The position numbers and the translations under genes were made by a program. Of a DNA stretch of 64,000 nt, positions 7,771 to 47,078 are shown piece by piece. The notes under the pieces were generated by a model that was given only the letters and a program-made list of their open reading frames with translations, was not told the origin of the DNA and did no database searches. Origin of the DNA: Candidatus Woesebacteria bacterium (GTDB taxonomy: Bacteria > Patescibacteriota > Microgenomatia > UBA8517); NCBI GenBank assembly GCA_020060565.1, contig JAGVAE010000002.1, forward strand, positions 179,255 through 243,254, in the 5' to 3' direction. Numbering within the stretch: the first letter of the stretch is position 1; each line of letters begins with the position of its first letter.

Positions 7771-9431
7771 TGAAAAATTCAAATGGTTTAAAGTTTATAG
7801 CACTTTCAGGAACGATTGATGTTACTGAAAATCTTTATGTCTACGAATATGGAAATGACATGATGATTGTTGATTGTGGTGTTGGGTTTCCCGATCTAGA
7901 AATGCCAGGAGTTGAATTGGTTCTACCGGACTTTTCCTACATTGTAAAAAATAAAAATAAATTAAGGGGAATTGTAGTTTCTCAGGGACACGATGATCAT
8001 GTTGGAGCCCTCCCTTTTCTTTTAAAAGAACTAAATGCTCCTATTTGGTGTACTCCTCTTGTTACAGAGTTTTTAAAAGTTAAATTTAAAGATTATAAAG
8101 TCACAAACTATAAACTAAACACATTTAATCCAGACCGTGATGTTTTTAGTGTTGGACCCTTTAATATTATTTCATTCCGTGTGACCCATTCAGTTCCTGA
8201 TACTGTGGGTTTTGCTATTGATACTCCTGAGGGAAGAGTTTTCCATGTAGCAGAACACAAGATGGACCAGACATCCGCTGATAATATGAATTTTGACATT
8301 GTCAAAGCCAAGAAATTAGCCGATGAAAAACCAGTTTTATGTCTAATGTCCGACTGCTTAGGATCAAACTCTCCAGGATTTACTCCAAGTGGACAATCAA
8401 TCGAAAACAATCTTTTTAATATTGCCAAAGATGCCTCTCAGGCAATTTATATGACTGCAATCTCCTCAAGTATCGGCAGATTTCAGCAAATGATTCGTGT
8501 AGCACAAAAGATAAATAGGAAAGTTGTACTTGTGGGGCGTTCTGTTCAAAGTAAAATTGAAATTGCCCATGACTTGGGTTATTTAAACTATCCCAATGAT
8601 CTAATAATAGATCTAAAAGAGTCACTTAATTATAATCCCAGAAAACTTGTTTATATTATTGCTGGTTGTTATGGCCAGATCGGAAGCTCTGTTTATAGAC
8701 TCGCTCTTGAGGAGCACGAGAGAGTTAAAATAAACAAAGGTGATACTTTCATATTCTCTGCAGATCCCGGCCCCGCCTACTCAAAAGAGAGTGAAGATTT
8801 TATAGTTGATAAACTGGTCGATCTTGGTGTGGATGTTCACTATTACGATTTAGGGGAAGGACTTCATGTTTCAGGACATGGTGGTCAGGAAGATATTAAG
8901 GAACTGTTTAAGATTGTAAAACCAAAATATTACATTCCTACAGGGGGAACTATTAGATATATGAAGTCGTATGAGAAATTAGCAGTTTCGGTTGGAGCAA
9001 AAGAGGAAGATGTATTTAGACTTAAACCTGGGGAAAGTGTGATTTTTGAGGATGGACAAGCAAGGCGTGGAGAAACTATTAAGACAAAAGAGGTATTGGT
9101 TCATGGATTGGGAATTGGTGATATTGGTAAGGTTGTTCTAACGGATAGAACTGCATTGGGCAAGGAAGGAGTTGTTGTTGCTGTAGTTAAAACAAACAAA
9201 CAGGGAAAAATTGTGGCAAGGCCAGAATTAACTAGTCGTGGATTTGTTTTTGAACCAGGGTATGGTGGAGTGCTTGATGAAGCCGCAATTGGTTTAGATA
9301 AAACTCTCCAAAGTAAAAAATTACAAAATAATTCTTCTATAAAAAATCTTACAAATCAATTTTTGGAAAAGTATTTCTATGACAAAACTCGCCGCCACCC
9401 CATGATTCTCCCAGTGGTTGTTGAGGTTTAA
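7770..9431 (+). CDS. rnj: Ribonuclease J (metallo-beta-lactamase/beta-CASP)
   Basis: The N-terminus is LKFIALSGTIDVTENLYVYEYGNDMMIVDCGVGFPD, followed by GHDDHVGALP (a variant HxHxDH), a beta-CASP region and a C-terminal domain; 553 aa in total. Confidence 0.85.
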   Translation: MKNSNGLKFIALSGTIDVTENLYVYEYGNDMMIVDCGVGFPDLEMPGVELVLPDFSYIVKNKNKLRGIVVSQGHDDHVGALPFLLKELNAPIWCTPLVTEFLKVKFKDYKVTNYKLNTFNPDRDVFSVGPFNIISFRVTHSVPDTVGFAIDTPEGRVFHVAEHKMDQTSADNMNFDIVKAKKLADEKPVLCLMSDCLGSNSPGFTPSGQSIENNLFNIAKDASQAIYMTAISSSIGRFQQMIRVAQKINRKVVLVGRSVQSKIEIAHDLGYLNYPNDLIIDLKESLNYNPRKLVYIIAGCYGQIGSSVYRLALEEHERVKINKGDTFIFSADPGPAYSKESEDFIVDKLVDLGVDVHYYDLGEGLHVSGHGGQEDIKELFKIVKPKYYIPTGGTIRYMKSYEKLAVSVGAKEEDVFRLKPGESVIFEDGQARRGETIKTKEVLVHGLGIGDIGKVVLTDRTALGKEGVVVAVVKTNKQGKIVARPELTSRGFVFEPGYGGVLDEAAIGLDKTLQSKKLQNNSSIKNLTNQFLEKYFYDKTRRHPMILPVVVEV

Positions 9432-9946
9432 CCTCTATTTACTGTTCTTCCTGGATAATCTATTAGAGATTTGTAAACAATTAGTGCTGTTTTTCCAACC
9501 TTATTAGCTTCTTCTAGACTAACAGATTCCCTCATTCTCGCTGTCACATATGTTGCCAATTCGGGATGTTTGTCCATATCACTTTGTATTTCTTGATATA
9601 TTTTGTTTGGGTCCTTTTGGCTAGAATGGTATTCATCTTCTGTTATATCGATCCAGGTTGATAAATTTACATCTTCATCGAATTCCTCAGTACTATCATT
9701 ATCAACGGGAAGAGAACTTACTATTTTGTAGACCACTAAAGAAGTCTCTCCAATTAGTGCCCTTTCTGAAGTGGTAAGGGCGGAATTCATTTTATCTGTG
9801 ACGTATAGTCCTAATTCAGGATGATCACACATACCATCTATCACTATTTGATTAATGTTGTTGGCAAAACCCGATTCTATGTTTTTAATCAAACCACTGA
9901 ATTGAAAGACCTCCCCCTTTTCTTGAGTGTCCATATTTATAAACAA
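9428..9946 (-). CDS. Hypothetical acidic protein with an internal two-fold repeat
   Basis: 172 aa. The two halves share DHPELGLYVTDKMNSALTTSERALIGETSLVVYKIV and KHPELATYVTARMRESVSLEEANKVGKTALIVYKSL. It is convergent with rnj. Confidence 0.55.
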   Translation of the reverse strand: MFINMDTQEKGEVFQFSGLIKNIESGFANNINQIVIDGMCDHPELGLYVTDKMNSALTTSERALIGETSLVVYKIVSSLPVDNDSTEEFDEDVNLSTWIDITEDEYHSSQKDPNKIYQEIQSDMDKHPELATYVTARMRESVSLEEANKVGKTALIVYKSLIDYPGRTVNRG

Positions 9947-10016: not shown

Positions 10017-12131
10017 ATGGGGAAAATAAAGAAACGTCAAAGATTTACCAAGCGTGGGTTTAGGCTCAAACTCAAAAAAGAGACAACTTTTTCAATCGCG
10101 CAAGTTTTATTCTTTGCTGTTGCTGGACTTATTTTAATATCATTCTCCCGTCAGGGAGCAATCCTTCTTAAGTTTAATGATCTTTTAGTTACTTATTTTT
10201 CTTGGTCTTCCATCTTTTTACCATTCATCTTTTTATCTTTTGCATTTTTAATGACTAAAGTTAAGTTTCCCTTGGGACAGCCCAATGTAATTGTTGGAGG
10301 ACTTCTTTTCTTTGTTTCTATAATGACTTTAGGGAAGGCTGGAGTGATAGGAATTAGCGCTTGGGAAGGAATGGCGGCACTTGTAACTAAAGTCGGGGCA
10401 GCAATAATTTTAGTTGGAACAAGTTTTGTGGGGCTTATAGTCCTATTTAATACCTCAATCGACGCAGTTATTAAGATTGCTAAAAACTGGTGGGGAATAA
10501 TCAGTGGCTATATTTTCGGAACAGGAACTCCTTCCAAAGGACAGTTTAAACTTTCTGGACAAAGTACTATAAAAACCGCATTGAATGTTAATGCTCCAAG
10601 ACCCATTGGTTCTACTACTCAACCTGTTGCAAAAGAGCCACTTGAACAAAAACTAGTGAGCAATATCCCAGGTCAGGATTTGATTTGGAAATATCCAAGT
10701 CTTGATCTTTTAGGGGAGGCTGAAATGGGCAAGGCTGAGCGGGGAGATATTAGAGGTAATGCTGCAACTATTGAAAAAACTCTTGAATCTTTTGGAATTG
10801 ATGCCAAGGTGGTTGAGGTTAATTTGGGCCCTGCCGTTACCCAATATGCACTGGAAGTTGCATTGGGAACAAAACTAAGTAAAATCACAAGTTTGGAACG
10901 GGACTTAGCACTAGCTCTTGCTGCCCCCAATGGAACCATTAGAATTGAGGCCCCAATCCCTGGTAGAAGTTTAGTTGGAATAGAGCTTCCCAATCGTGCT
11001 GCTGAATTTGTTTCTCTTAGGAAAATGCTTGAGTCTGATGAAATGGCTTCACATAAATCAAAACTAGCGGTTTCTTTGGGACTTGATGTTTCAGGTAAGC
11101 CCATTATTGCTGATATTGCCAGAATGCCCCACGTACTTATTGCAGGACAAACTGGAAGTGGAAAATCAGTTTGTATAAATGCATTCTTAGCATCACTTCT
11201 TTTTAGAGCTGCACCTACCGAAGTTAAACTCATTTTAGTCGATCCCAAGAGGGTTGAGCTAACTGGATATAATGGAATTCCACATTTACTTTCCCCTGTT
11301 ATAGTTGAACCAGATAAAGTTATTTCCGCTTTAAGATGGATTATGGCTGAGATGGATAGACGCTATAAATTGTTTGCAGAAGCTGGGGCAAGAAACATTG
11401 ATGGATATAACGAAATGAGTGGATTTCAAGCCCTTCCTTATATAGTTCTTTTCATTGATGAACTTGCAGATATTATGCTTTTCTCTCCTGTTGAAGTTGA
11501 AGATGCAATCACTCGTATTGCACAAATGAGTAGAGCCACTGGAATTCATATGGTTCTTGCCACTCAGCGTCCTTCAGTTGATGTTATCACAGGGTTAATC
11601 AAGGCCAACGTTCCATCACGTATTGCTTTTGCTGTTGCCTCTCAAGTTGATTCCCGTGTTATTCTCGATACCCAAGGGGCAGAAAAATTATTAGGTAAAG
11701 GAGACATGTTATATCTTCCCCCAGAACAGGCTAAACCTATGAGAATTCAGGGAGCTTTTGTAAACGATAAAGAAATAAACACTTTAGTTTCATTTATCAA
11801 AAATCAGGGCATTCCAACACAATATACAGACGAAGTTACAACCATGTCCAAAGCTGGGACAGTAACAATTGCTGGAGTAAGTGGAGAAATTGACGATTTA
11901 TTTAAAGAAGCTATAAAGGTTGTTTGCCAATATGACAAAGCATCTTCATCTCTTCTTCAAAGGAGGCTTTCAATAGGTTATGCCAGAGCGGCTAGAATTA
12001 TGGATCAACTAGAAGCTTCAGGAGTAGTTTCTCCAAGTGAAGGTGGAAGTAAAGCTCGTGAGGTCTTGGTACAAAATGCAGAAGAGTTTTTAGCTTCTTT
12101 CGGAAATGAAAACAATAGGCCAAATTCTTAA
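10017..12131 (+). CDS. ftsK: DNA translocase FtsK/SpoIIIE
   Basis: The N-terminus is polytopic. The motor domain has Walker A GQTGSGKS; LILVDPKRVEL is also present. The C-terminal gamma/wHTH is LLQRRLSIGYARAARIMDQLEASGVV. Confidence 0.9.
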   Translation: MGKIKKRQRFTKRGFRLKLKKETTFSIAQVLFFAVAGLILISFSRQGAILLKFNDLLVTYFSWSSIFLPFIFLSFAFLMTKVKFPLGQPNVIVGGLLFFVSIMTLGKAGVIGISAWEGMAALVTKVGAAIILVGTSFVGLIVLFNTSIDAVIKIAKNWWGIISGYIFGTGTPSKGQFKLSGQSTIKTALNVNAPRPIGSTTQPVAKEPLEQKLVSNIPGQDLIWKYPSLDLLGEAEMGKAERGDIRGNAATIEKTLESFGIDAKVVEVNLGPAVTQYALEVALGTKLSKITSLERDLALALAAPNGTIRIEAPIPGRSLVGIELPNRAAEFVSLRKMLESDEMASHKSKLAVSLGLDVSGKPIIADIARMPHVLIAGQTGSGKSVCINAFLASLLFRAAPTEVKLILVDPKRVELTGYNGIPHLLSPVIVEPDKVISALRWIMAEMDRRYKLFAEAGARNIDGYNEMSGFQALPYIVLFIDELADIMLFSPVEVEDAITRIAQMSRATGIHMVLATQRPSVDVITGLIKANVPSRIAFAVASQVDSRVILDTQGAEKLLGKGDMLYLPPEQAKPMRIQGAFVNDKEINTLVSFIKNQGIPTQYTDEVTTMSKAGTVTIAGVSGEIDDLFKEAIKVVCQYDKASSSLLQRRLSIGYARAARIMDQLEASGVVSPSEGGSKAREVLVQNAEEFLASFGNENNRPNS

Positions 12132-12729
12132 AGACTCCCGCATTGCAAAAAGTTATTCCTTAAAACACCTAGAAGGAGTGACAAAAATAAAATCCGGGTT
12201 TATTGATGCTATTGAAAAAGAAAATTGGGAAGATCTTCCTCCATTTCCCACAGTTTTGGGGTTTGTAAAAAGTTTGGCGGGTTCAATGGGTGTTGACACA
12301 AAAATGGCTGTGGCAGTTCTTAAACGTGATTATCCACCCCAAAAACTTAGAATTATTCCCAAACCAGATGTAATTAAAAAAATTGTTTGGAGCCCTAAAC
12401 TTACTTTTACTTTAGGAGTTTCTGCAATTTTGATTATTCTTTTTGGCTATCTAATCACCCAATATGTTCATTTTATTTCTCCGCCAGTCCTTAATGTTGC
12501 TAGTCCCAAGGAAAACCAAATTGTAAAAGGTAATAGTGTTGTTGTTTTTGGTTCAACTGAAACCGATGCTAAACTTACTGTTAATAATCAACCTGTTATG
12601 GTTGCACCTGATGGAAAATTCTCAATAAGTTTAGATATTGCAAAAGATACTAAAGAAATAATAATTGCATCATCATCACGCTCTGGTAAAACTACCACTG
12701 TATCGCGTAGAATACAATTGGAACAATAA
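12106..12729 (+). CDS. RodZ-like HTH membrane protein
   Basis: An N-terminal XRE-type HTH (IGQILKDSRIAKSYSLKHLEGVTKIKSGFIDAIEKENWEDLP…VLGFVKSLAGSMGVD), one TM segment and an extracytoplasmic beta-rich C-terminus. It overlaps the ftsK 3' end by 26 nt. Confidence 0.6.
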   Translation: MKTIGQILKDSRIAKSYSLKHLEGVTKIKSGFIDAIEKENWEDLPPFPTVLGFVKSLAGSMGVDTKMAVAVLKRDYPPQKLRIIPKPDVIKKIVWSPKLTFTLGVSAILIILFGYLITQYVHFISPPVLNVASPKENQIVKGNSVVVFGSTETDAKLTVNNQPVMVAPDGKFSISLDIAKDTKEIIIASSSRSGKTTTVSRRIQLEQ

Positions 12730-12962
12730 TGGACAACATACAAACACTTTTGGTGATAGTTGTAATAAGTTTAACAATTCTTCTTGTAATTGTTGGCTTT
12801 CAGGTAATGCTAATTATTATTGATTTGAGGCGTGCAATAAAAAGATTAAATTCGATACTGGAAGATTCAATATTGGGTGGAGGATTAATTCGTCCAGAGA
12901 AATTAACTTCAGTTATGGAAATTTTGGGAAAGAATAAAAAACTAGAAACCCACGGTGGCTAG
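12729..12962 (+). CDS. Small membrane protein (hypothetical)
   Basis: 77 aa with one hydrophobic helix (LLVIVVISLTILLVIVGFQVMLIIIDL); start/stop overlap ATGA with the upstream gene. Confidence 0.4.
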   Translation: MDNIQTLLVIVVISLTILLVIVGFQVMLIIIDLRRAIKRLNSILEDSILGGGLIRPEKLTSVMEILGKNKKLETHGG

Positions 12963-12980
12963 ACATGCTATACTTTAGCC

Positions 12981-14783
12981 ATGACTACAAAGGAGATTAG
13001 GGAAAAATATATTGAATTCTTCGTTAGTAGAGGACACAAGGAAATAACACCTTCCCCTTTGGTTTTGGAAAATGATCCTACAACACTTTTTACCTCTTCT
13101 GGAATGCAACAAATGGTCCCTTATTTTAAAGGTGAAAAACACCCAATGGGAGAAAAACTTGTTGACTCTCAACTTTCAGTAAGAATGCAAGATCTTGATG
13201 AAGTTGCTGATAATAGACATTTAAGTTCTTTTGAGATGCTTGGTAATTGGGGTTTGGGAAGTTATTTTAAAAAAGATCAACTAAACTGGATTTGGGAATT
13301 TTTTATTGAAGAAATTGGTTTTGATTCAGAGAGACTGCATGTATCACTTTTTGAAGGTAACAAAGATGTTCCCAAGGATACTGAATCTTATAAAATTTGG
13401 AGAAAAATAGGTCTTCCTGAAAATCATATACATTTTTATGATGTTAACAAAAATTGGTGGGCAAGAAACGGTGCAGTTCCATCTAATATGCCGACTGGGG
13501 AAATTGGTGGACCAGATAGCGAAATTTTTTATGAATTTGATTTTATCGAACATCGCCCCGAATTTGGTTCTTTTTGCCACCCAAACTGCGATTGCGGCAA
13601 ATTTTTGGAAATTGGAAACAGTGTTTTTATGGAATATGTAAAAAACGAAGACGGATCTTTAAGTGAATTGCCACAAAAGAACGTAGATTTTGGGGGAGGT
13701 CTAGAGAGAATTGCTGCTGCTAAAAATGACAACCCTGATGTTTTTAAAATTGATATGTTTTCTGGGATTATTAAAAGAATTGAAGAGGAAATTGGTATTA
13801 ATTACAATTCAGATCCCAAAAAAGATAGAGATTTTCGAATTATTACTGACCATCTTAGAACGTCATGTAACCTTCTTGCGGAAGGGGTAATCCCAGGAAA
13901 TAAACTTCACGGATATGCATTAAGGCGTTTAATAAGACGTGCAATGTTTCACTGTCATCTGTTGGGTTCTGGTATATCTGGTTCAGGGATATCTCACATA
14001 GCCGAAGATTTGCGTAATCACTATCCCAATGTTGATAAAAACTGGGATTTTGTTGAAGAAAATTTAAATACAGAAGCCGTAAGATTCGAATCCGCTCTAA
14101 AACGCGGTTTGGCTAATTTGACGAAAGCTGTTTCGGATGGAGTAGAAATTGACGGAAAGTTTGCGTTTGATCTTTATCAAAATGACGGATTTCCACTTGA
14201 GTTAACTCTTGAAATTCTATCCCAAAACGGTATGAATTTTACGCAAGACGAAAAGAATGCTTTTGAAGCGGAGTTTGAAAAACATAGAGAAAATTCCAGA
14301 GTTACATCAGCTGGAATTTTTAAAGGAGGTTTGGAGAATAAATCAGATGAAACTATTACAAAACTTCATACGACTACCCACCTACTTCACGCTGCACTTC
14401 GTCAGATTTTGGGAGAACATATTTCTCAAAAGGGAAGCCATATTACAGCAGAAAGACTAAGATTTGATTTTGGACATCCAGGAAAACTAACAGATGAAGA
14501 AATCAAAAATGTTGAGGATCTGATGAACTTACAAATAGAAAAGAAACTGCCTGTCACTTTCAAAACCGAAAGTTTAGACGCAGCCATTGCCAAAGGGGCC
14601 CTCCACTTCTTCGCAGACAAATATGGAAACGAAGTAAAAGTGTACAGTATTGGCAATTTTTCAAAAGAAGTTTGTGGAGGACCACACGTTGAAAACACTA
14701 AGGAGATTGAGCATGTTAGAATAATTAAGCAGGAAAAAATTGGATCCGGAGTTATCCGAATCTATGCTGGTATTGAAAAATGA
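12981..14783 (+). CDS. alaS: Alanine--tRNA ligase, short form (catalytic, tRNA-recognition and editing domains; no C-Ala domain)
   Basis: IREKYIEFFVSRGHKEITPSPLVLENDPTTLFTSSGMQQMVPYF; GGPDSEIFYEF…CHPNCDCGKFLEIGNSVFMEY; and the editing-domain HTTTHLLHAALRQILGEHISQKGSHITAERLRFDF. Only 600 aa. Confidence 0.9.
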   Translation: MTTKEIREKYIEFFVSRGHKEITPSPLVLENDPTTLFTSSGMQQMVPYFKGEKHPMGEKLVDSQLSVRMQDLDEVADNRHLSSFEMLGNWGLGSYFKKDQLNWIWEFFIEEIGFDSERLHVSLFEGNKDVPKDTESYKIWRKIGLPENHIHFYDVNKNWWARNGAVPSNMPTGEIGGPDSEIFYEFDFIEHRPEFGSFCHPNCDCGKFLEIGNSVFMEYVKNEDGSLSELPQKNVDFGGGLERIAAAKNDNPDVFKIDMFSGIIKRIEEEIGINYNSDPKKDRDFRIITDHLRTSCNLLAEGVIPGNKLHGYALRRLIRRAMFHCHLLGSGISGSGISHIAEDLRNHYPNVDKNWDFVEENLNTEAVRFESALKRGLANLTKAVSDGVEIDGKFAFDLYQNDGFPLELTLEILSQNGMNFTQDEKNAFEAEFEKHRENSRVTSAGIFKGGLENKSDETITKLHTTTHLLHAALRQILGEHISQKGSHITAERLRFDFGHPGKLTDEEIKNVEDLMNLQIEKKLPVTFKTESLDAAIAKGALHFFADKYGNEVKVYSIGNFSKEVCGGPHVENTKEIEHVRIIKQEKIGSGVIRIYAGIEK

Positions 14784-16984
14784 ACCTCAAAGATTTTTTG
14801 ACAAGTCGCGAGTCGCCACCAGAACTTTACTGGTCACTTGTTGTTGAAAAAGGTTGGGTACAGGCGGGTATTTGGTATATAAATGAGTCTTCTGCGGAAG
14901 TAATTAACATTAGCCCCAGCGCTGCTTGGGAAGTTGAGGGAGAGTTAATTGGAGCCTGTGATGCGGTACTTTCTTCTTGTGTAAGTAAACTTCCAGAAAA
15001 CTATACTGAGCCAAGTAAAACTGTTTTTGGAGTTAGTTCTTCTTGGGTGAAAGAAGGAGAAATAACCGATGAATATTTGGCAATGATTAAGACGGTCTGT
15101 ACTGATTTATCTCTAACTCCTGTAGGTTTTGTAGTTTTACCAGAGGCAATTGCTCATTTATATAAGTCGGAAGAAGGGTCTCCCTTGAGTGCGGTTGTTA
15201 TTGGATTGAGTCCTGAAGAACTGGAAATATCGGTTTTTAATTTGGGTAATCTTATTGGTACCACATCTGTTGCCAGAAGTGTTTCGATTATTGAAGATGT
15301 TACAGAAGGGTTATCTCGTTTTGAAGGAGCCTCTCCGCTTCCCTCTCGAATGATTGTTTTTGATGGTAAGGAAGGAGAGTTGGAGGAAGCGAAAGAAGAA
15401 TTAATGAAAGCCACGTGGGAAGGAAATGAAAAAATGAAATTTTTACATACCCCTAAAGCCGAGACACTTGAAAGCAGTAAAAAAGTTTTGGCTACTTGTT
15501 TAGCTGGGGCAGCTGAGATTGGAAATGTAACAGAGGTCTTTTCTAAAGAAGAACCAATAGGGGAAGAAACATATCCACCTGAGGCTGAAATTAAAAACGT
15601 GGTAGAACCCGATGAAGAAACAAGTGCAGAGAAGCTTGGATTTTCAATTAATGAAGATGTCACAAGTAATCAAAGTCCAGTTTCTGGGCATATATCATTA
15701 AACTCACCCATCACACCACCAGTTTTACCGATAGCCCAACCCCAGCAAAAAGTAAACCCCCAACATCAAAAATTTGGTGTGGGGGTAAAAAATTTATTCC
15801 ATACTTTTTCGTCGAAGTTCAAAATTGGCGGTCCAAAAATTTCTTCGCAGGGAAATAAAAAATCTTTGAAGTTAATTTTAATAATTGCAGTTGTTTTAAT
15901 TGTTGGGATTGGAGCTTATTCGTGGTTTGTTCCTAAAGCAACAATAACAATCTTTGTTGCACCGAAGCCATTTCAACAGCAGGTTAGTATTTCCTTTAAT
16001 ACGCAAGGCGTGTTTGATGAATCAAAAGCCATTCTCCCCGCACAAATTATTACTTCACAAGCATCGGGGGACAAGACAAAATCCACGACTGGTGCTAAGT
16101 TAGTTGGAGATAAAGCCACAGGAAGTGTTCAAATTGCCAATGGAAATACAAGCTCAATAAAATTAGCAACAGGAACAGTTTTAACATCAACTTCAGGACT
16201 TAAATTTATAACAAATTCTGAAGCTTCCATTTCTGGACAGTTATTACCTGGTTCCCCGGGAACTGCAACATTAGAAGTAACTGCAGGGGATATTGGTGCC
16301 CAGTACAATTTAGCAAAAGGAGAAGTGTTTAAAGTTGGAGTATTTGAAAAATCATTGGTTGCAGCAACTTCACAAACAGATTTTTCAGGAGGAAGTAGTC
16401 AACAAATTGCAGCCGTTTCTGAAGAAGATCAGGAAAATTTAGAGACTGATCTAAAATCTGAACTTTCCAGCAAGGTTATAAATGATTTGGAAAGTAAGGC
16501 AAGTGAAGATCAACTTTTTGTCGATGATTTAGCTGAATTTGAAACTACGTCGAAGAATTTTGACCACAAGGTCGGTGAAGTAGCCGAAACCCTAAAACTT
16601 ACATCGGAGATTAATGCTACTACAGTATTGGTTGATAGGGAAAAACTTCAAAACTATGTTGCAAACATTCTTAAAGATAAAATTCCACAAGGTCACGCAT
16701 TGCGCAATAACCAAATTAAATTCAAATTTACATTTATTAGTAAAGAAGGAGAAAATTATATTTACACAATCAATATAAGTGCTAATTTTTTACCCATGAC
16801 AAATTCTGAAGAGATTATTAGTAAAATATCGGGTAAAAGTGTTTCATCTGCTACTGAATTTTTATCTTCCGTACCTGGATATACTCGTGCTGAAATAGCA
16901 CTAAAGAATAAACTTCTTGGTCCATTCAAGACTCTGCCACACGTAAAAGATAATATTACAATAGAAATTGCGGCAGATCAGTGA
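14780..16984 (+). CDS. Membrane protein: a degenerate actin-like (FtsA/PilM-like) cytoplasmic domain, an acidic linker, one TM segment and a large beta-rich extracytoplasmic domain
   Basis: 734 aa. The N-terminal ~210 aa follow an ASKHA-fold pattern (…FGVSSSWV…LSLTPVGFVVLPEAIAHLY…AVVIGLSPEELEISVFNLGNLIGTTSV…). The TM segment is LKLILIIAVVLIVGIGAYSWFV. The ~350-aa ectodomain is rich in T/S/G beta-strand repeats. Confidence 0.55.
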   Translation: MNLKDFLTSRESPPELYWSLVVEKGWVQAGIWYINESSAEVINISPSAAWEVEGELIGACDAVLSSCVSKLPENYTEPSKTVFGVSSSWVKEGEITDEYLAMIKTVCTDLSLTPVGFVVLPEAIAHLYKSEEGSPLSAVVIGLSPEELEISVFNLGNLIGTTSVARSVSIIEDVTEGLSRFEGASPLPSRMIVFDGKEGELEEAKEELMKATWEGNEKMKFLHTPKAETLESSKKVLATCLAGAAEIGNVTEVFSKEEPIGEETYPPEAEIKNVVEPDEETSAEKLGFSINEDVTSNQSPVSGHISLNSPITPPVLPIAQPQQKVNPQHQKFGVGVKNLFHTFSSKFKIGGPKISSQGNKKSLKLILIIAVVLIVGIGAYSWFVPKATITIFVAPKPFQQQVSISFNTQGVFDESKAILPAQIITSQASGDKTKSTTGAKLVGDKATGSVQIANGNTSSIKLATGTVLTSTSGLKFITNSEASISGQLLPGSPGTATLEVTAGDIGAQYNLAKGEVFKVGVFEKSLVAATSQTDFSGGSSQQIAAVSEEDQENLETDLKSELSSKVINDLESKASEDQLFVDDLAEFETTSKNFDHKVGEVAETLKLTSEINATTVLVDREKLQNYVANILKDKIPQGHALRNNQIKFKFTFISKEGENYIYTINISANFLPMTNSEEIISKISGKSVSSATEFLSSVPGYTRAEIALKNKLLGPFKTLPHVKDNITIEIAADQ

Positions 16985-17655
16985 ATTTCACAATGAATCA
17001 AAAAAATATTTTACGTGTAGCAGCTTTAATTTCGGCAATTTCGGGAATTGTAATTTTGATCGGAGTAATCTATCCAATTGTTTCATACGATGAGACTTAT
17101 GGGAAAAATTTTTCAGAACTTGTTTCCCCCCTAAGTGAAAATCCAATAAATCAATCCGAAAATGACTTTACTAGAGCTAGTAATTGGTTTGTAGGCGGAG
17201 CAAAGTCGTCTGATTTTAATGCTGCAAAAGTTGAGCACTTTACAATCAGTATTCCTGCTTTAAAAATAGATCATGCAACAGTAACAATAGGAGGAGAAGA
17301 CTTAAATGAAAGCATTATTCAATATCCAGGAACAGCTCTTCCTGGTAGGCCAGGTAATACGGCAATTTTTGGACATTCAATTTTACCAATCTTCTATAAT
17401 CCCAAAAACTATATTTCCATTTTTTCACTTTTACCTACTCTTAAAAAAGATGATGAGGTTTTTATAGATTACGATGGTGTATCGTATAAATATAAAGTCG
17501 AAACCATGTTTGAAGTAATGCCAACAGATATACAAGTACTTGATCAGGATTATTCTGATTCTTTTGTGACTCTTGTAACTTGCGTACCACCAGGCCATCC
17601 CAACGATCCTAAACGTCTAATAGTTCGTGCTAGGATTGTTCCACCTACAAACTAA
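16981..17655 (+). CDS. Sortase family transpeptidase
   Basis: An N-terminal TM anchor; IFGHS (the catalytic His region); TLVTCVPPG (the TLxTC catalytic Cys motif); a conserved Arg in LIVRARI. Confidence 0.75.
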   Translation: MNFTMNQKNILRVAALISAISGIVILIGVIYPIVSYDETYGKNFSELVSPLSENPINQSENDFTRASNWFVGGAKSSDFNAAKVEHFTISIPALKIDHATVTIGGEDLNESIIQYPGTALPGRPGNTAIFGHSILPIFYNPKNYISIFSLLPTLKKDDEVFIDYDGVSYKYKVETMFEVMPTDIQVLDQDYSDSFVTLVTCVPPGHPNDPKRLIVRARIVPPTN

Positions 17656-18058: not shown

Positions 18059-18259
18059 ATGTTTAAGAATGTAATTTCACCAATTCAGGCATGGCTACTT
18101 TCACAGGGACGATGTGTTGGTTGTGGAAAAGATTTGTCTATCGGTAAGAGTTCTAATCATAAATTTGGTAGCAAAAAAGTTGTTTGTCAATGTGGTCGTA
18201 TTTTCATTTATGACCCTAAGACAAAAAAGTATAGACGCGCGCTTCTTGAAGAAGTGTAA
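18059..18259 (+). CDS. Small zinc-ribbon protein (hypothetical)
   Basis: 66 aa with CVGCGK…CQCGR (C4). Confidence 0.45.
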   Translation: MFKNVISPIQAWLLSQGRCVGCGKDLSIGKSSNHKFGSKKVVCQCGRIFIYDPKTKKYRRALLEEV

Positions 18260-45794: not shown

Positions 45795-47078
45795 ATGCTT
45801 AGTAAAATATGGCAGTTTTTAGTTAAATCAGTTAAGACTCCTTCTATCAGGAAGAAGCTTATTATTACTGGGATTATCCTTATTGTTTTTAGACTTGCTG
45901 CTCACATTCCTGCAGCTGGTATTGATAGAACCACTCTAGCTGCTCTTTTTGCAGGAAGTCCACTTCTGTCACTACTTGATGTATTTTCTGGTGGAACTCT
46001 GGCCAACTTTTCCATTCTTGCTTTGGGACTTAACCCTTATATTAATGCCTCTATTGCCTTTCAGCTTTTGGGACATGTAGTGCCAAGTTTGGAAGCTTTG
46101 CAAAAAGAAGGAGAATATGGGCAAGAAAAAATTAACCAATATACACGCCTTTTGACAGTCCCTCTGGCTGCAATGCAGGCTTTTGGTATGTATGCTCTTT
46201 TAAAGGGTCAAAATATTATTTCCAATTTAGGACCAATTGAGCTTCTTTCTCTTGTTATTACCATGACTGCAGGAACTGTATTTGCTGTTTGGTTGGGGGA
46301 ACTAATTAGTGAATACGGATTCAAAAATGGAGTTTCACTACTTATTTTTACTGGAATTGTTGCACGTCTTCCTATTGTTTTTGGACAGTCAGCGACAACA
46401 TTGGGTTCCCAAGATGTTTTGAAAGTGGTAATTTTCCTTGGGGTCGCAATTTTAATTGTAGGAGCAGTTATCTTCATTAGTGAAGCTGCGAGACATATTC
46501 CTATTCATTATGCAAAAAGAAGAACTGAAAGTGGATTGGGGGCAACTTCATATCTTCCCTTGCGCTTAAATCAGGCGGGAGTTATTCCTATTATTTTTGC
46601 AGTTTCCTTGGTTCTTATGCCTTCTCTTTTGGGGCAGTTTTTGGCAAATGTTCCCAATGCTCAAATTGCTGGTTTTGCCAGAGGAATAAGTACTGCGTTT
46701 GATCCTCAGGGCTTGGTATATAACATAGTTTATTTCTTCTTGGTATTTGGTTTTACCTATTTTTATACAGCTGTGGTATTTAATCCCGAAAAAATTGCAG
46801 AGAACCTGCAAAAAGGTGGAGGGTTTGTGCCAGGAATAAGACCTGGAAAAGAAACCGAAAAACACCTTTCCCATGTTCTTTCGCGCTTAACAATGGTTGG
46901 TGGAGTTTTCTTGGGACTCGTTGCTGTTCTTCCCTCGTTTTTTAGTAGTGCTATTGGAGCATCCAACTTAGCAATTGGAGGAACTAGTATTTTGATTGTT
47001 GTTTCAGTTGCTCTTGAGATGATTAGGGAGATGGAGGGGGAACTGGTAATGGGAAGATATGACAGGTTGATTAGATAA
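45795..47078 (+). CDS. secY: Preprotein translocase subunit SecY
   Basis: 427 aa with 10 TM segments; …KKLIITGIILIVFRLAAHIPAAGID…. Confidence 0.95.
   Translation: MLSKIWQFLVKSVKTPSIRKKLIITGIILIVFRLAAHIPAAGIDRTTLAALFAGSPLLSLLDVFSGGTLANFSILALGLNPYINASIAFQLLGHVVPSLEALQKEGEYGQEKINQYTRLLTVPLAAMQAFGMYALLKGQNIISNLGPIELLSLVITMTAGTVFAVWLGELISEYGFKNGVSLLIFTGIVARLPIVFGQSATTLGSQDVLKVVIFLGVAILIVGAVIFISEAARHIPIHYAKRRTESGLGATSYLPLRLNQAGVIPIIFAVSLVLMPSLLGQFLANVPNAQIAGFARGISTAFDPQGLVYNIVYFFLVFGFTYFYTAVVFNPEKIAENLQKGGGFVPGIRPGKETEKHLSHVLSRLTMVGGVFLGLVAVLPSFFSSAIGASNLAIGGTSILIVVSVALEMIREMEGELVMGRYDRLIR

Follow-up and report, generated by a model that had tools for sequence, protein, structure and literature searches.

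Gene organization of the locus

The DNA analyzed here (the window) is a 64,000 nt stretch from a Candidatus Woesebacteria bacterium (contig JAGVAE010000002.1, positions 179,255–243,254, forward strand). It is ~37% GC, carries nearly all of its genes on the plus strand, and codes for IF-2, S15, PNPase, RNase J, FtsK, AlaRS, RuvX, MltG, RpoB/C, RecA/RecX and RNase Y, among others. The gene of interest, referred to below as the target, occupies 14780..16984 (+), starts with ATG and specifies a protein of 734 aa (plus stop). It lies within a housekeeping block (ftsK, a rodZ-like gene, alaS, ruvX, mltG and rpoBC), with alaS upstream (12981..14783, +; 600 aa) and a sortase gene downstream (16993..17655, +). 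The structural assignment of the target protein is solid: an actin-like (ASKHA) domain is followed by a linker, a transmembrane helix and a baseplate-J-like ectodomain. This combination of an actin fold inside and a baseplate-wedge-like domain outside the membrane, encoded between alaS and a sortase gene, is undescribed.

The alaS stop codon overlaps the target start by 4 nt (ATGA), and ruvX begins 1 nt past the sortase stop, so that tight gene packing is not peculiar to the target-sortase pair. Promoter and terminator scans of 9.4–19.4 kb gave results at chance level, and operon boundaries were not found in this region.

The cytoplasmic actin-fold domain

The N-terminal domain (N-domain, aa 1–255; 14780..15544, +) was modeled by AlphaFold2 from an alignment of 59 members with <60% mutual identity, giving a predicted local distance difference test (pLDDT) score of 94.2 and a predicted TM-score (pTM) of 0.90. 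Its secondary structure follows the order beta-beta-beta-alpha-beta-alpha-beta-alpha twice, corresponding to two RNase-H-like lobes around a cleft, the hallmark of the ASKHA superfamily. The model describes a complete but minimal ASKHA fold, made up solely of lobes IA and IIA; neither the 1C/2B subdomains known from FtsA and PilM nor the IB/IIB insertions are present, and no insertions are seen in the secondary-structure map of the 255 aa. A first reading of the DNA, made from the sequence alone (the sequence-only reading), had proposed an actin-like domain represented by its second half. The fold is predicted with high confidence, but both lobes are present, and the peptide quoted in that reading (aa 138–165) forms the first three strands of lobe II.

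The closest structural matches of the N-domain were FtsA and PilM, the best being FtsA, for which 212 of ~370 residues were aligned. At the sequence level, FtsA alone was detectable and only weakly so (profile E 0.016), and the identity of the target to FtsA (PDB 3wqt, 7q6d, 1e4f) is only 9–13%. A Pfam search with the 59 N-domains returned no significant family and faint matches to actin-clan DUFs only. Since no Pfam model matches any of these members, they constitute an ASKHA family without a model.

The DxG phosphate loops of FtsA have no counterpart in the target. When the two are aligned, the phosphate-1 DxG (DIGSS) of FtsA falls on V21/E23 of the target, and the phosphate-2 DxG (DIGED) on G142/S144. 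Across the 59 members, the phosphate-1 Asp column is occupied by E14/V12/L10/I9 and the following Gly column by R/E/S/K, while the phosphate-2 Asp column is E19/G16/D5 and its Gly column G(26)/S/E/D. The adenosine GG is replaced by D/N/G followed by G/S. The signatures of Mg-nucleotide binding (phosphate-1 DxG, phosphate-2 DxG(G) and adenosine GG) are therefore absent or not conserved, as had been anticipated for the phosphate-binding motifs, and because of this the N-domain is probably a nucleotide-independent actin-fold module. Conservation of 90–100% is found at L110-x-L-x-P-x-G-F117, E132-G-x-P135, G156, L187-P-S-R190, W213 and F221-L-H-x-P225; the connect motifs PEA, EGxP, LPSR, W213 and FLHxP all lie within this range.

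With FtsA as the best structural match, the target could be a scaffold for division or cell-wall morphogenesis, its FtsA-like domain docking the FtsZ tail, MreB or the RodZ-like protein and its ectodomain organizing peptidoglycan synthesis or remodeling. Nothing in this scheme is specific to sortase, which would be merely another envelope gene of the superoperon. However, the target lacks both the 1C (SHS2) and 2B subdomains of FtsA, which bind downstream divisome proteins and FtsZ. FtsA is tethered by a C-terminal amphipathic helix, whereas the target has a true transmembrane helix running into a 350-aa ectodomain, and ftsA belongs to the ftsQ-ftsA-ftsZ (dcw) cluster, whereas the neighbors of the target are alaS and the sortase gene. 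MreBCD and RodA are, moreover, already present in a complete Microgenomates genome (PMC7143001), which also speaks against this role.

Linker and membrane anchor

The linker (aa 256–359; 15545..15856, +) is Pro-rich and variable, with 39% mean identity among close homologues. It had been described as acidic, which applies to its first part only; overall, the fraction of D+E (0.12) is close to that of K+R (0.09). Within it lies a conserved short linear motif, L-G-F-S-I-N-E-D-V (aa 286–294; 15635..15661, +), with the family pattern (F/L)-G287-F288-x-x-x-x-D293-(I/V). G287, F288 and D293 are invariant in the close homologue set, and among 120 distant homologues the Gly is retained in 116, the Phe in all 120 and the Asp in 99.

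The only hydrophobic helix of the protein (aa 360–384; 15857..15931, +) reaches 2.61 in Kyte-Doolittle 19-residue windows and is also modeled as a helix by AlphaFold2 (residues 3–26 of the ectodomain model), in agreement with the single transmembrane helix noted previously. Its N-side flank is Lys-rich (6 Lys, compared with 2 on the C-side), which indicates an N-in/C-out orientation and hence a cytoplasmic linker. The target is thus predicted, from both sequence and model, to be a single-pass bitopic membrane protein with the actin fold inside and the ectodomain outside.

The baseplate-J-like ectodomain

The extracytoplasmic domain (aa 385–734; 15932..16981, +) is 350 aa long and rich in S+T+G (27%), as the sequence-only reading had indicated, but it is mixed alpha/beta rather than a beta domain, and its relationship to baseplate J/gp47 proteins had gone unnoticed. 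An AlphaFold2 model built from 141 sequences has a pLDDT of 96.5. The Pfam model Baseplate_J (PF04865) matches aa 443–539 marginally (E 1.9e-4; 21.3 bits, gathering cut-off 21.1), within the beta-barrel core (aa 441–540; 16100..16399, +). The family profile matches the diffocin TRI-2/CD1371 baseplate protein with an E of 3.2e-7, and the signature VGDKAxGxV ... DIGAQYNL ... FSGGSS is aligned. Three distant family members match PHROG_6 ('baseplate wedge subunit') with E ~1e-7, while a search of PHROGs with the window protein itself gave no match. In Foldseek comparisons with wedge proteins (~350 aa), 330–370 columns were aligned with E-values from 5e-7 to 4e-4.

The barrel is firmly homologous to baseplate J/gp47, and the whole ectodomain is likely to be homologous to a complete wedge protein with a different arrangement of its domains, as inter-domain geometry differs (TM-score ~0.21). 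The relationship is ancient: a tblastn search of 50,697 phage genomes with the ectodomain returned no match. Known wedge proteins (PF04865; Mu gp47, 9ki1; diffocin CD1371, 8v3w; phi812, 9euf; Pvc11; Afp11; also gp6 and TssF) are soluble, act in tails assembled in the cytoplasm, and are encoded together with sheath, tube and spike genes, whereas the module in the target lies outside the membrane, is fused to a transmembrane helix and an actin fold, and has no tail genes near it. The target therefore joins the Baseplate_J family in sequence and fold, and by its ectodomain only; it fails the contextual definition of that family, which is a baseplate of a contractile tail, contractile injection system or type VI secretion system encoded with sheath, tube, spike, gp25 and gpI-like genes. 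We know of no other Baseplate_J member that works outside the cell and away from tail genes.

The C-terminus of the target (...TLPHVKDNITIEIAADQ) falls within the folded domain, where block-mean pLDDT is 88–97. No LPxTG-like motif, hydrophobic stretch or basic tail was found there, which upholds the earlier view that the protein is probably not a sortase substrate. The conserved C-terminal 'LPGP...TLP' was considered as a cryptic sorting signal and rejected, as it falls in a confidently folded strand region with no hydrophobic tail.

The adjacent sortase

The protein encoded directly downstream of the target is a sortase, as reported from the sequence (Pfam Sortase E 1.9e-23, 83 bits), of ~220 aa from its ATG. 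It carries an N-terminal transmembrane anchor, GHS at aa 131–133, TLVTC at aa 197–201, and R212/R216/R218 in an Arg-rich stretch after the Cys, so that the His, the TLxTC Cys and the downstream Arg of sortase domains are all present. Given the N-terminal anchor, its catalytic domain would lie on the same side of the membrane as the target ectodomain. Its highest NCBIfam scores, 50.7 bits for class C and 45.4 bits for class E, stay below the class cut-offs of 160, so that it fits none of the sortase classes A–F. Among PDB sequences it is matched best by pilus sortases of class C (E 2e-8). Sortase loci of Gram-positive bacteria likewise code for a membrane-anchored enzyme with these catalytic residues, but there an LPxTG substrate or pilin gene is adjacent, whereas none lies beside the target. 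We know of no sortase system that uses an actin-fold or baseplate-like partner.

A 4-nt overlap of the target with the sortase gene had been proposed, which depends on the GTG at 16981 that begins the longest open reading frame (ORF). Nearly all orthologous sortases, including all of the closer ones, start with M-(S/T/N)-Q-K-T-(I/V)-L-R, a start that in the window falls on the ATG at 16993, and the GTG-start form of the window sortase is absent from a collection of 15 billion proteins. The overlap is thus probably an artifact of choosing the longest ORF.

Gene neighborhood in related genomes

The locus was compared across 30 species-representative genomes and seven more distant lineages (25–35% identity), a total of 37 loci, of which 36 have DNA downstream of the target. 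In the 30 genomes the gene order is RNase J, FtsK, RodZ-like, a 77-aa transmembrane protein, AlaRS, target, sortase, RuvX, a 66-aa Zn-ribbon-like protein, MltG and RpoB, and the sortase gene adjoins the target in 29/29 loci with downstream DNA. In the seven distant lineages the flanks are rearranged: rpoB or a methyltransferase gene is found upstream, ruvX is lost or replaced by a thymidine phosphorylase gene, and a RuBisCO-like gene has been inserted. The alaS-target-sortase arrangement is intact in all seven, and so in 36/36 loci overall, down to ~25–30% identity and even where the upstream genes and ruvX have been displaced. The pairing with sortase suggested by the sequence-only reading is robust, yet it is inseparable from the equally invariant alaS.

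Several features of this neighborhood are consistent with the division or wall-growth role raised above. The block holds ftsK, the rodZ-like gene, genes for YtxH-like small membrane proteins, ruvX and mltG, beside rpoBC. An alaS-ruvX-mltG neighborhood is conserved in Firmicutes as well, marking a general housekeeping and envelope locus. On the other hand, the target is not in a dcw cluster, and in the rearranged blocks ftsK/rodZ and ruvX move away while the sortase gene never does.

The name 'baseplate J/gp47 family protein', given to homologues by the Prokaryotic Genome Annotation Pipeline (PGAP), and the Pfam match at threshold would fit an ordinary baseplate gene left by a prophage, tailocin or contractile injection system. 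The context effectively refutes this: no sheath, tube, spike, gp25 or gpI-like gene occurs in the window or in any of the 37 related loci, and throughout the class the target keeps its fixed place, flanked by alaS on one side and the sortase gene on the other. The protein is also membrane-anchored with an actin-fold N-domain, and the searches of phage genomes with the ectodomain and of PHROGs with the window protein were both empty.

A platform of a type IV pilus or type II secretion-like machine, of the GspL or PilM-PilN type, is very improbable. The plan of a degenerate actin-like cytoplasmic domain, one transmembrane helix and an outside domain is common to PilM-PilN (PDB 5eou, 2ych, 3jc8), GspL and the target, but the likeness is one of architecture only. 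The periplasmic domains of PilN and GspL are ferredoxin-like, whereas the ectodomain of the target is baseplate-J-like; their genes form operons with pilB/pilC/pilO or gsp genes, whereas no pilB, pilC, pilO, pilin or gsp gene adjoins the target in any of the 37 loci. Type IV pilus components are widespread in the Candidate Phyla Radiation (CPR) (PMC6744442), but Microgenomates have a separate PilM (PMC7143001).

Family size, distribution and conservation

A word-indexed search retrieved 842 homologues of the target at E<=1e-3; the best 120 of these are all full length (707–758 aa) and share 53–100% identity. HMMER, run exhaustively over 1.84 billion cluster representatives, found 5419 matches at E<=1e-3 and 1157 at E<=1e-30. 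When a homologue with 29% identity served as the query of another search, the matches were once more near full length (650–800 aa). The sources are metagenome-assembled genomes of Microgenomates, Woesebacteria, Levybacteria and Shapirobacteria, and every named source belongs to the Microgenomates lineage. This places the bacterium from which the window derives in the CPR, class Microgenomatia. Homologues are named in the databases either 'hypothetical' or 'baseplate J/gp47 family protein'. Single-sequence phmmer of the target against PDB sequences gave no match, and NCBIfam returned noise only. No account of the family or its architecture emerged from full-text literature searches in which CPR, Patescibacteria or Microgenomates was paired with baseplate J, sortase or FtsA. 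The Pam pilus system of CPR (bioRxiv 10.64898/2026.03.03.709456) was considered and found to be unrelated, as its locus lies beside ATP synthase, with no role for sortase and no actin-like component.

Among close relatives, mean identity is 75% for the N-domain, 69% for the first half of the ectodomain, 50% for its second half and 35–39% for the linker and transmembrane segment; conservation is thus highest in the N-domain and the ectodomain barrel. At one related locus (L002), identity is 57% for the target, 62% for sortase, 60% for RuvX and 46% for MltG, which suggests purifying selection on the target comparable to that on adjacent core genes. The target gene is real and strongly conserved as a core gene across the Microgenomates (CPR) class, a pattern that would also suit a function in division.

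These conservation data bear on another explanation, in which the activity resides in the ectodomain. Descended from a phage baseplate protein, it would serve these presumably episymbiotic cells as an adhesin, a receptor or a host-contact device at the surface, and the actin-fold domain would only anchor or regulate it. Baseplate wedge proteins are interaction hubs that bear fibers or receptor-binding proteins, and the PDB matches of the ectodomain are such wedge proteins. Host-contact surfaces usually diversify, however, whereas the barrel (69% mean identity) is among the most conserved parts of the target. The gene also occupies a fixed housekeeping position, once per locus examined, with no adjacent fibre-like or variable genes. 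Protein families enriched in CPR are biased to membrane and cell-cell interaction functions (PMC6744442), but on balance we regard a host-contact role as improbable.

A putative transmembrane scaffold

FtsA, PilM-PilN and GspL clamp partner peptides, and wedge proteins assemble laterally with one another. By analogy with both, we tentatively propose that the target may be a transmembrane scaffold that forms oligomeric patches and positions envelope enzymes, with the adjacent sortase as its most likely client. The N-domain would provide a nucleotide-independent docking or oligomerization platform, clamping a short partner peptide in a manner comparable to PilM, FtsA and GspL, possibly the motif of its own linker in cis or in trans. 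Outside the membrane, ectodomains would associate side by side along its surface in the manner of wedge proteins within a baseplate, and the resulting patch or ring would position envelope-assembly enzymes, most likely the downstream membrane-anchored sortase. Attachment of surface proteins would thereby take place at defined sites. In favor of this proposal, the internal anchor of the target and the N-terminal anchor of the sortase put the large domains of both outside the membrane. Méheust et al. 2019 (PMC6744442) report that nearly all Microgenomates encode a sortase, whereas its distribution in other CPR is patchy, and all named sources of the target family are Microgenomates. An assembly scaffold for a sortase-dependent surface structure, as first suggested from the sequence, thus stays a candidate role. 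The target is not, however, a member of the PilM/PilN or FtsA families named in that reading, nor of the GspL family, having no 1C/2B subdomains, no ferredoxin-like ectodomain and no pil, gsp or dcw context.

A number of observations count against a dedicated link to sortase. alaS is as constant and as tightly packed a neighbor of the target as the sortase gene, and as spacing is tight throughout the block, adjacency may merely reflect conservation of a housekeeping operon. The sortase gene probably starts 8 nt past the target stop codon, with no overlap, and in orthologues the two genes are mostly separated by gaps of 4 to ~119 nt, with 1-nt overlaps in two loci. No pilin or credible LPxTG-type substrate gene was found in the 64-kb window; a regular-expression scan for C-terminal sorting signals returned implausible matches only, namely a 427-aa ORF at 45795–47078 (which we take to be SecY), an AI-2E transporter and an antisense ORF. 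At the related locus L033, the obvious substrate, a giant SpaA/SdrD protein, adjoins a second sortase rather than the target-linked one. Other points weigh on the scaffold proposal as a whole: in some family members the phosphate-2 positions still hold E/D and G, and the low TM-score to wedge proteins leaves the barrel alone as firmly homologous. A target-sortase interaction, oligomerization of either domain, peptide binding and the lack of ATP binding are all putative.

The main rival to the sortase-client scaffold is the division or wall-growth scaffold, which we consider possible and only slightly less likely. A further, quite unlikely variant is that a phage wedge protein was exapted in early Microgenomates, and that a ring of ectodomains on the outer face nucleates or anchors a sortase-assembled appendage or surface layer, placed by the actin-fold domain. 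The hydrophobic N-terminal helix of the ectodomain would act as the 'core bundle' helix of wedge proteins, and the degenerate actin-fold domain would set ring position and number from the cytoplasm. If true, this would be a new kind of platform for assembling surface structures.

We rate the target as a putative bitopic scaffold of the actin-fold type whose exapted baseplate ectodomain is without precedent, and the present account is the first concrete structural description of this protein. The CPR class Microgenomates is large and uncultured, and its genomes are tiny; a 734-aa protein that every sampled lineage keeps at a fixed position among core genes probably plays an important part in the biology of the envelope. 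Cooperation with sortase, if true, would make it the first dedicated scaffold for sortase-mediated surface assembly, and a role in division or wall growth, if true, a new actin-fold player in bacterial morphogenesis. Under either reading the databases give a misleading idea of its biology by naming it 'baseplate J/gp47 family protein', and the baseplate-J identity of the ectodomain changes which extracellular module needs explaining.

Other genes of the block

Bacterial AlaRS is usually ~870 aa, and the enzyme encoded in the window is much shorter (600 aa); its relatives are 583–634 aa, and Pfam detects only tRNA-synt_2c and tRNA_SAD in the equivalents. Between the RodZ-like gene and alaS is a gene for a 77-aa protein with a single transmembrane segment (12729–12962), which shows 82–92% identity across most Woesebacteria-like loci and is better conserved than its larger neighbors; equivalents in distant loci have a YtxH Pfam match. 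A second small protein, of 66 aa (18059–18259), is encoded between ruvX and mltG, carries a Zn-ribbon-like CxxC...CxC pattern and is 61–83% identical in nearly all related loci. The RodZ-like protein (12106–12729) has an HTH_25 domain, one transmembrane helix and a Glucodextran_B/Big-like outside domain. Its gene overlaps the end of ftsK and accompanies it even in those distant genomes that have the block inverted.

The sole minus-strand gene of the block (9428–9946) specifies a 172-aa protein with no Pfam match and an internal repeat (...DHPELGLYVTDKMNSAL... / ...KHPELATYVTARMRESV...). Two ORFs between the genes for IF-2 and S15, at 1015–1959 (314 aa) and 2035–2319 (94 aa), likewise gave no Pfam match at E<=1e-3.

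Two of the related loci carry additional features. In L033, FtsK (1–2715) contains an intein (Intein_splicing, LAGLIDADG_3), and at 10665–14373, downstream of mltG, there is a second, shorter sortase (192 aa) beside a protein of >1600 aa with SpaA, SdrD_B and CLIPPER repeats; the two look like a classical sortase-substrate pair, separate from the target-adjacent sortase. In L035 (8281–11687), a gene between ruvX and mltG encodes a 713-aa fusion protein in which a RuBisCO large subunit is joined to an IF-2B-like domain of the ribose-1,5-bisphosphate isomerase type. A thymidine phosphorylase gene has been inserted alongside this fusion, and the same place holds thymidine phosphorylase alone in L031, L032, L036 and L037.

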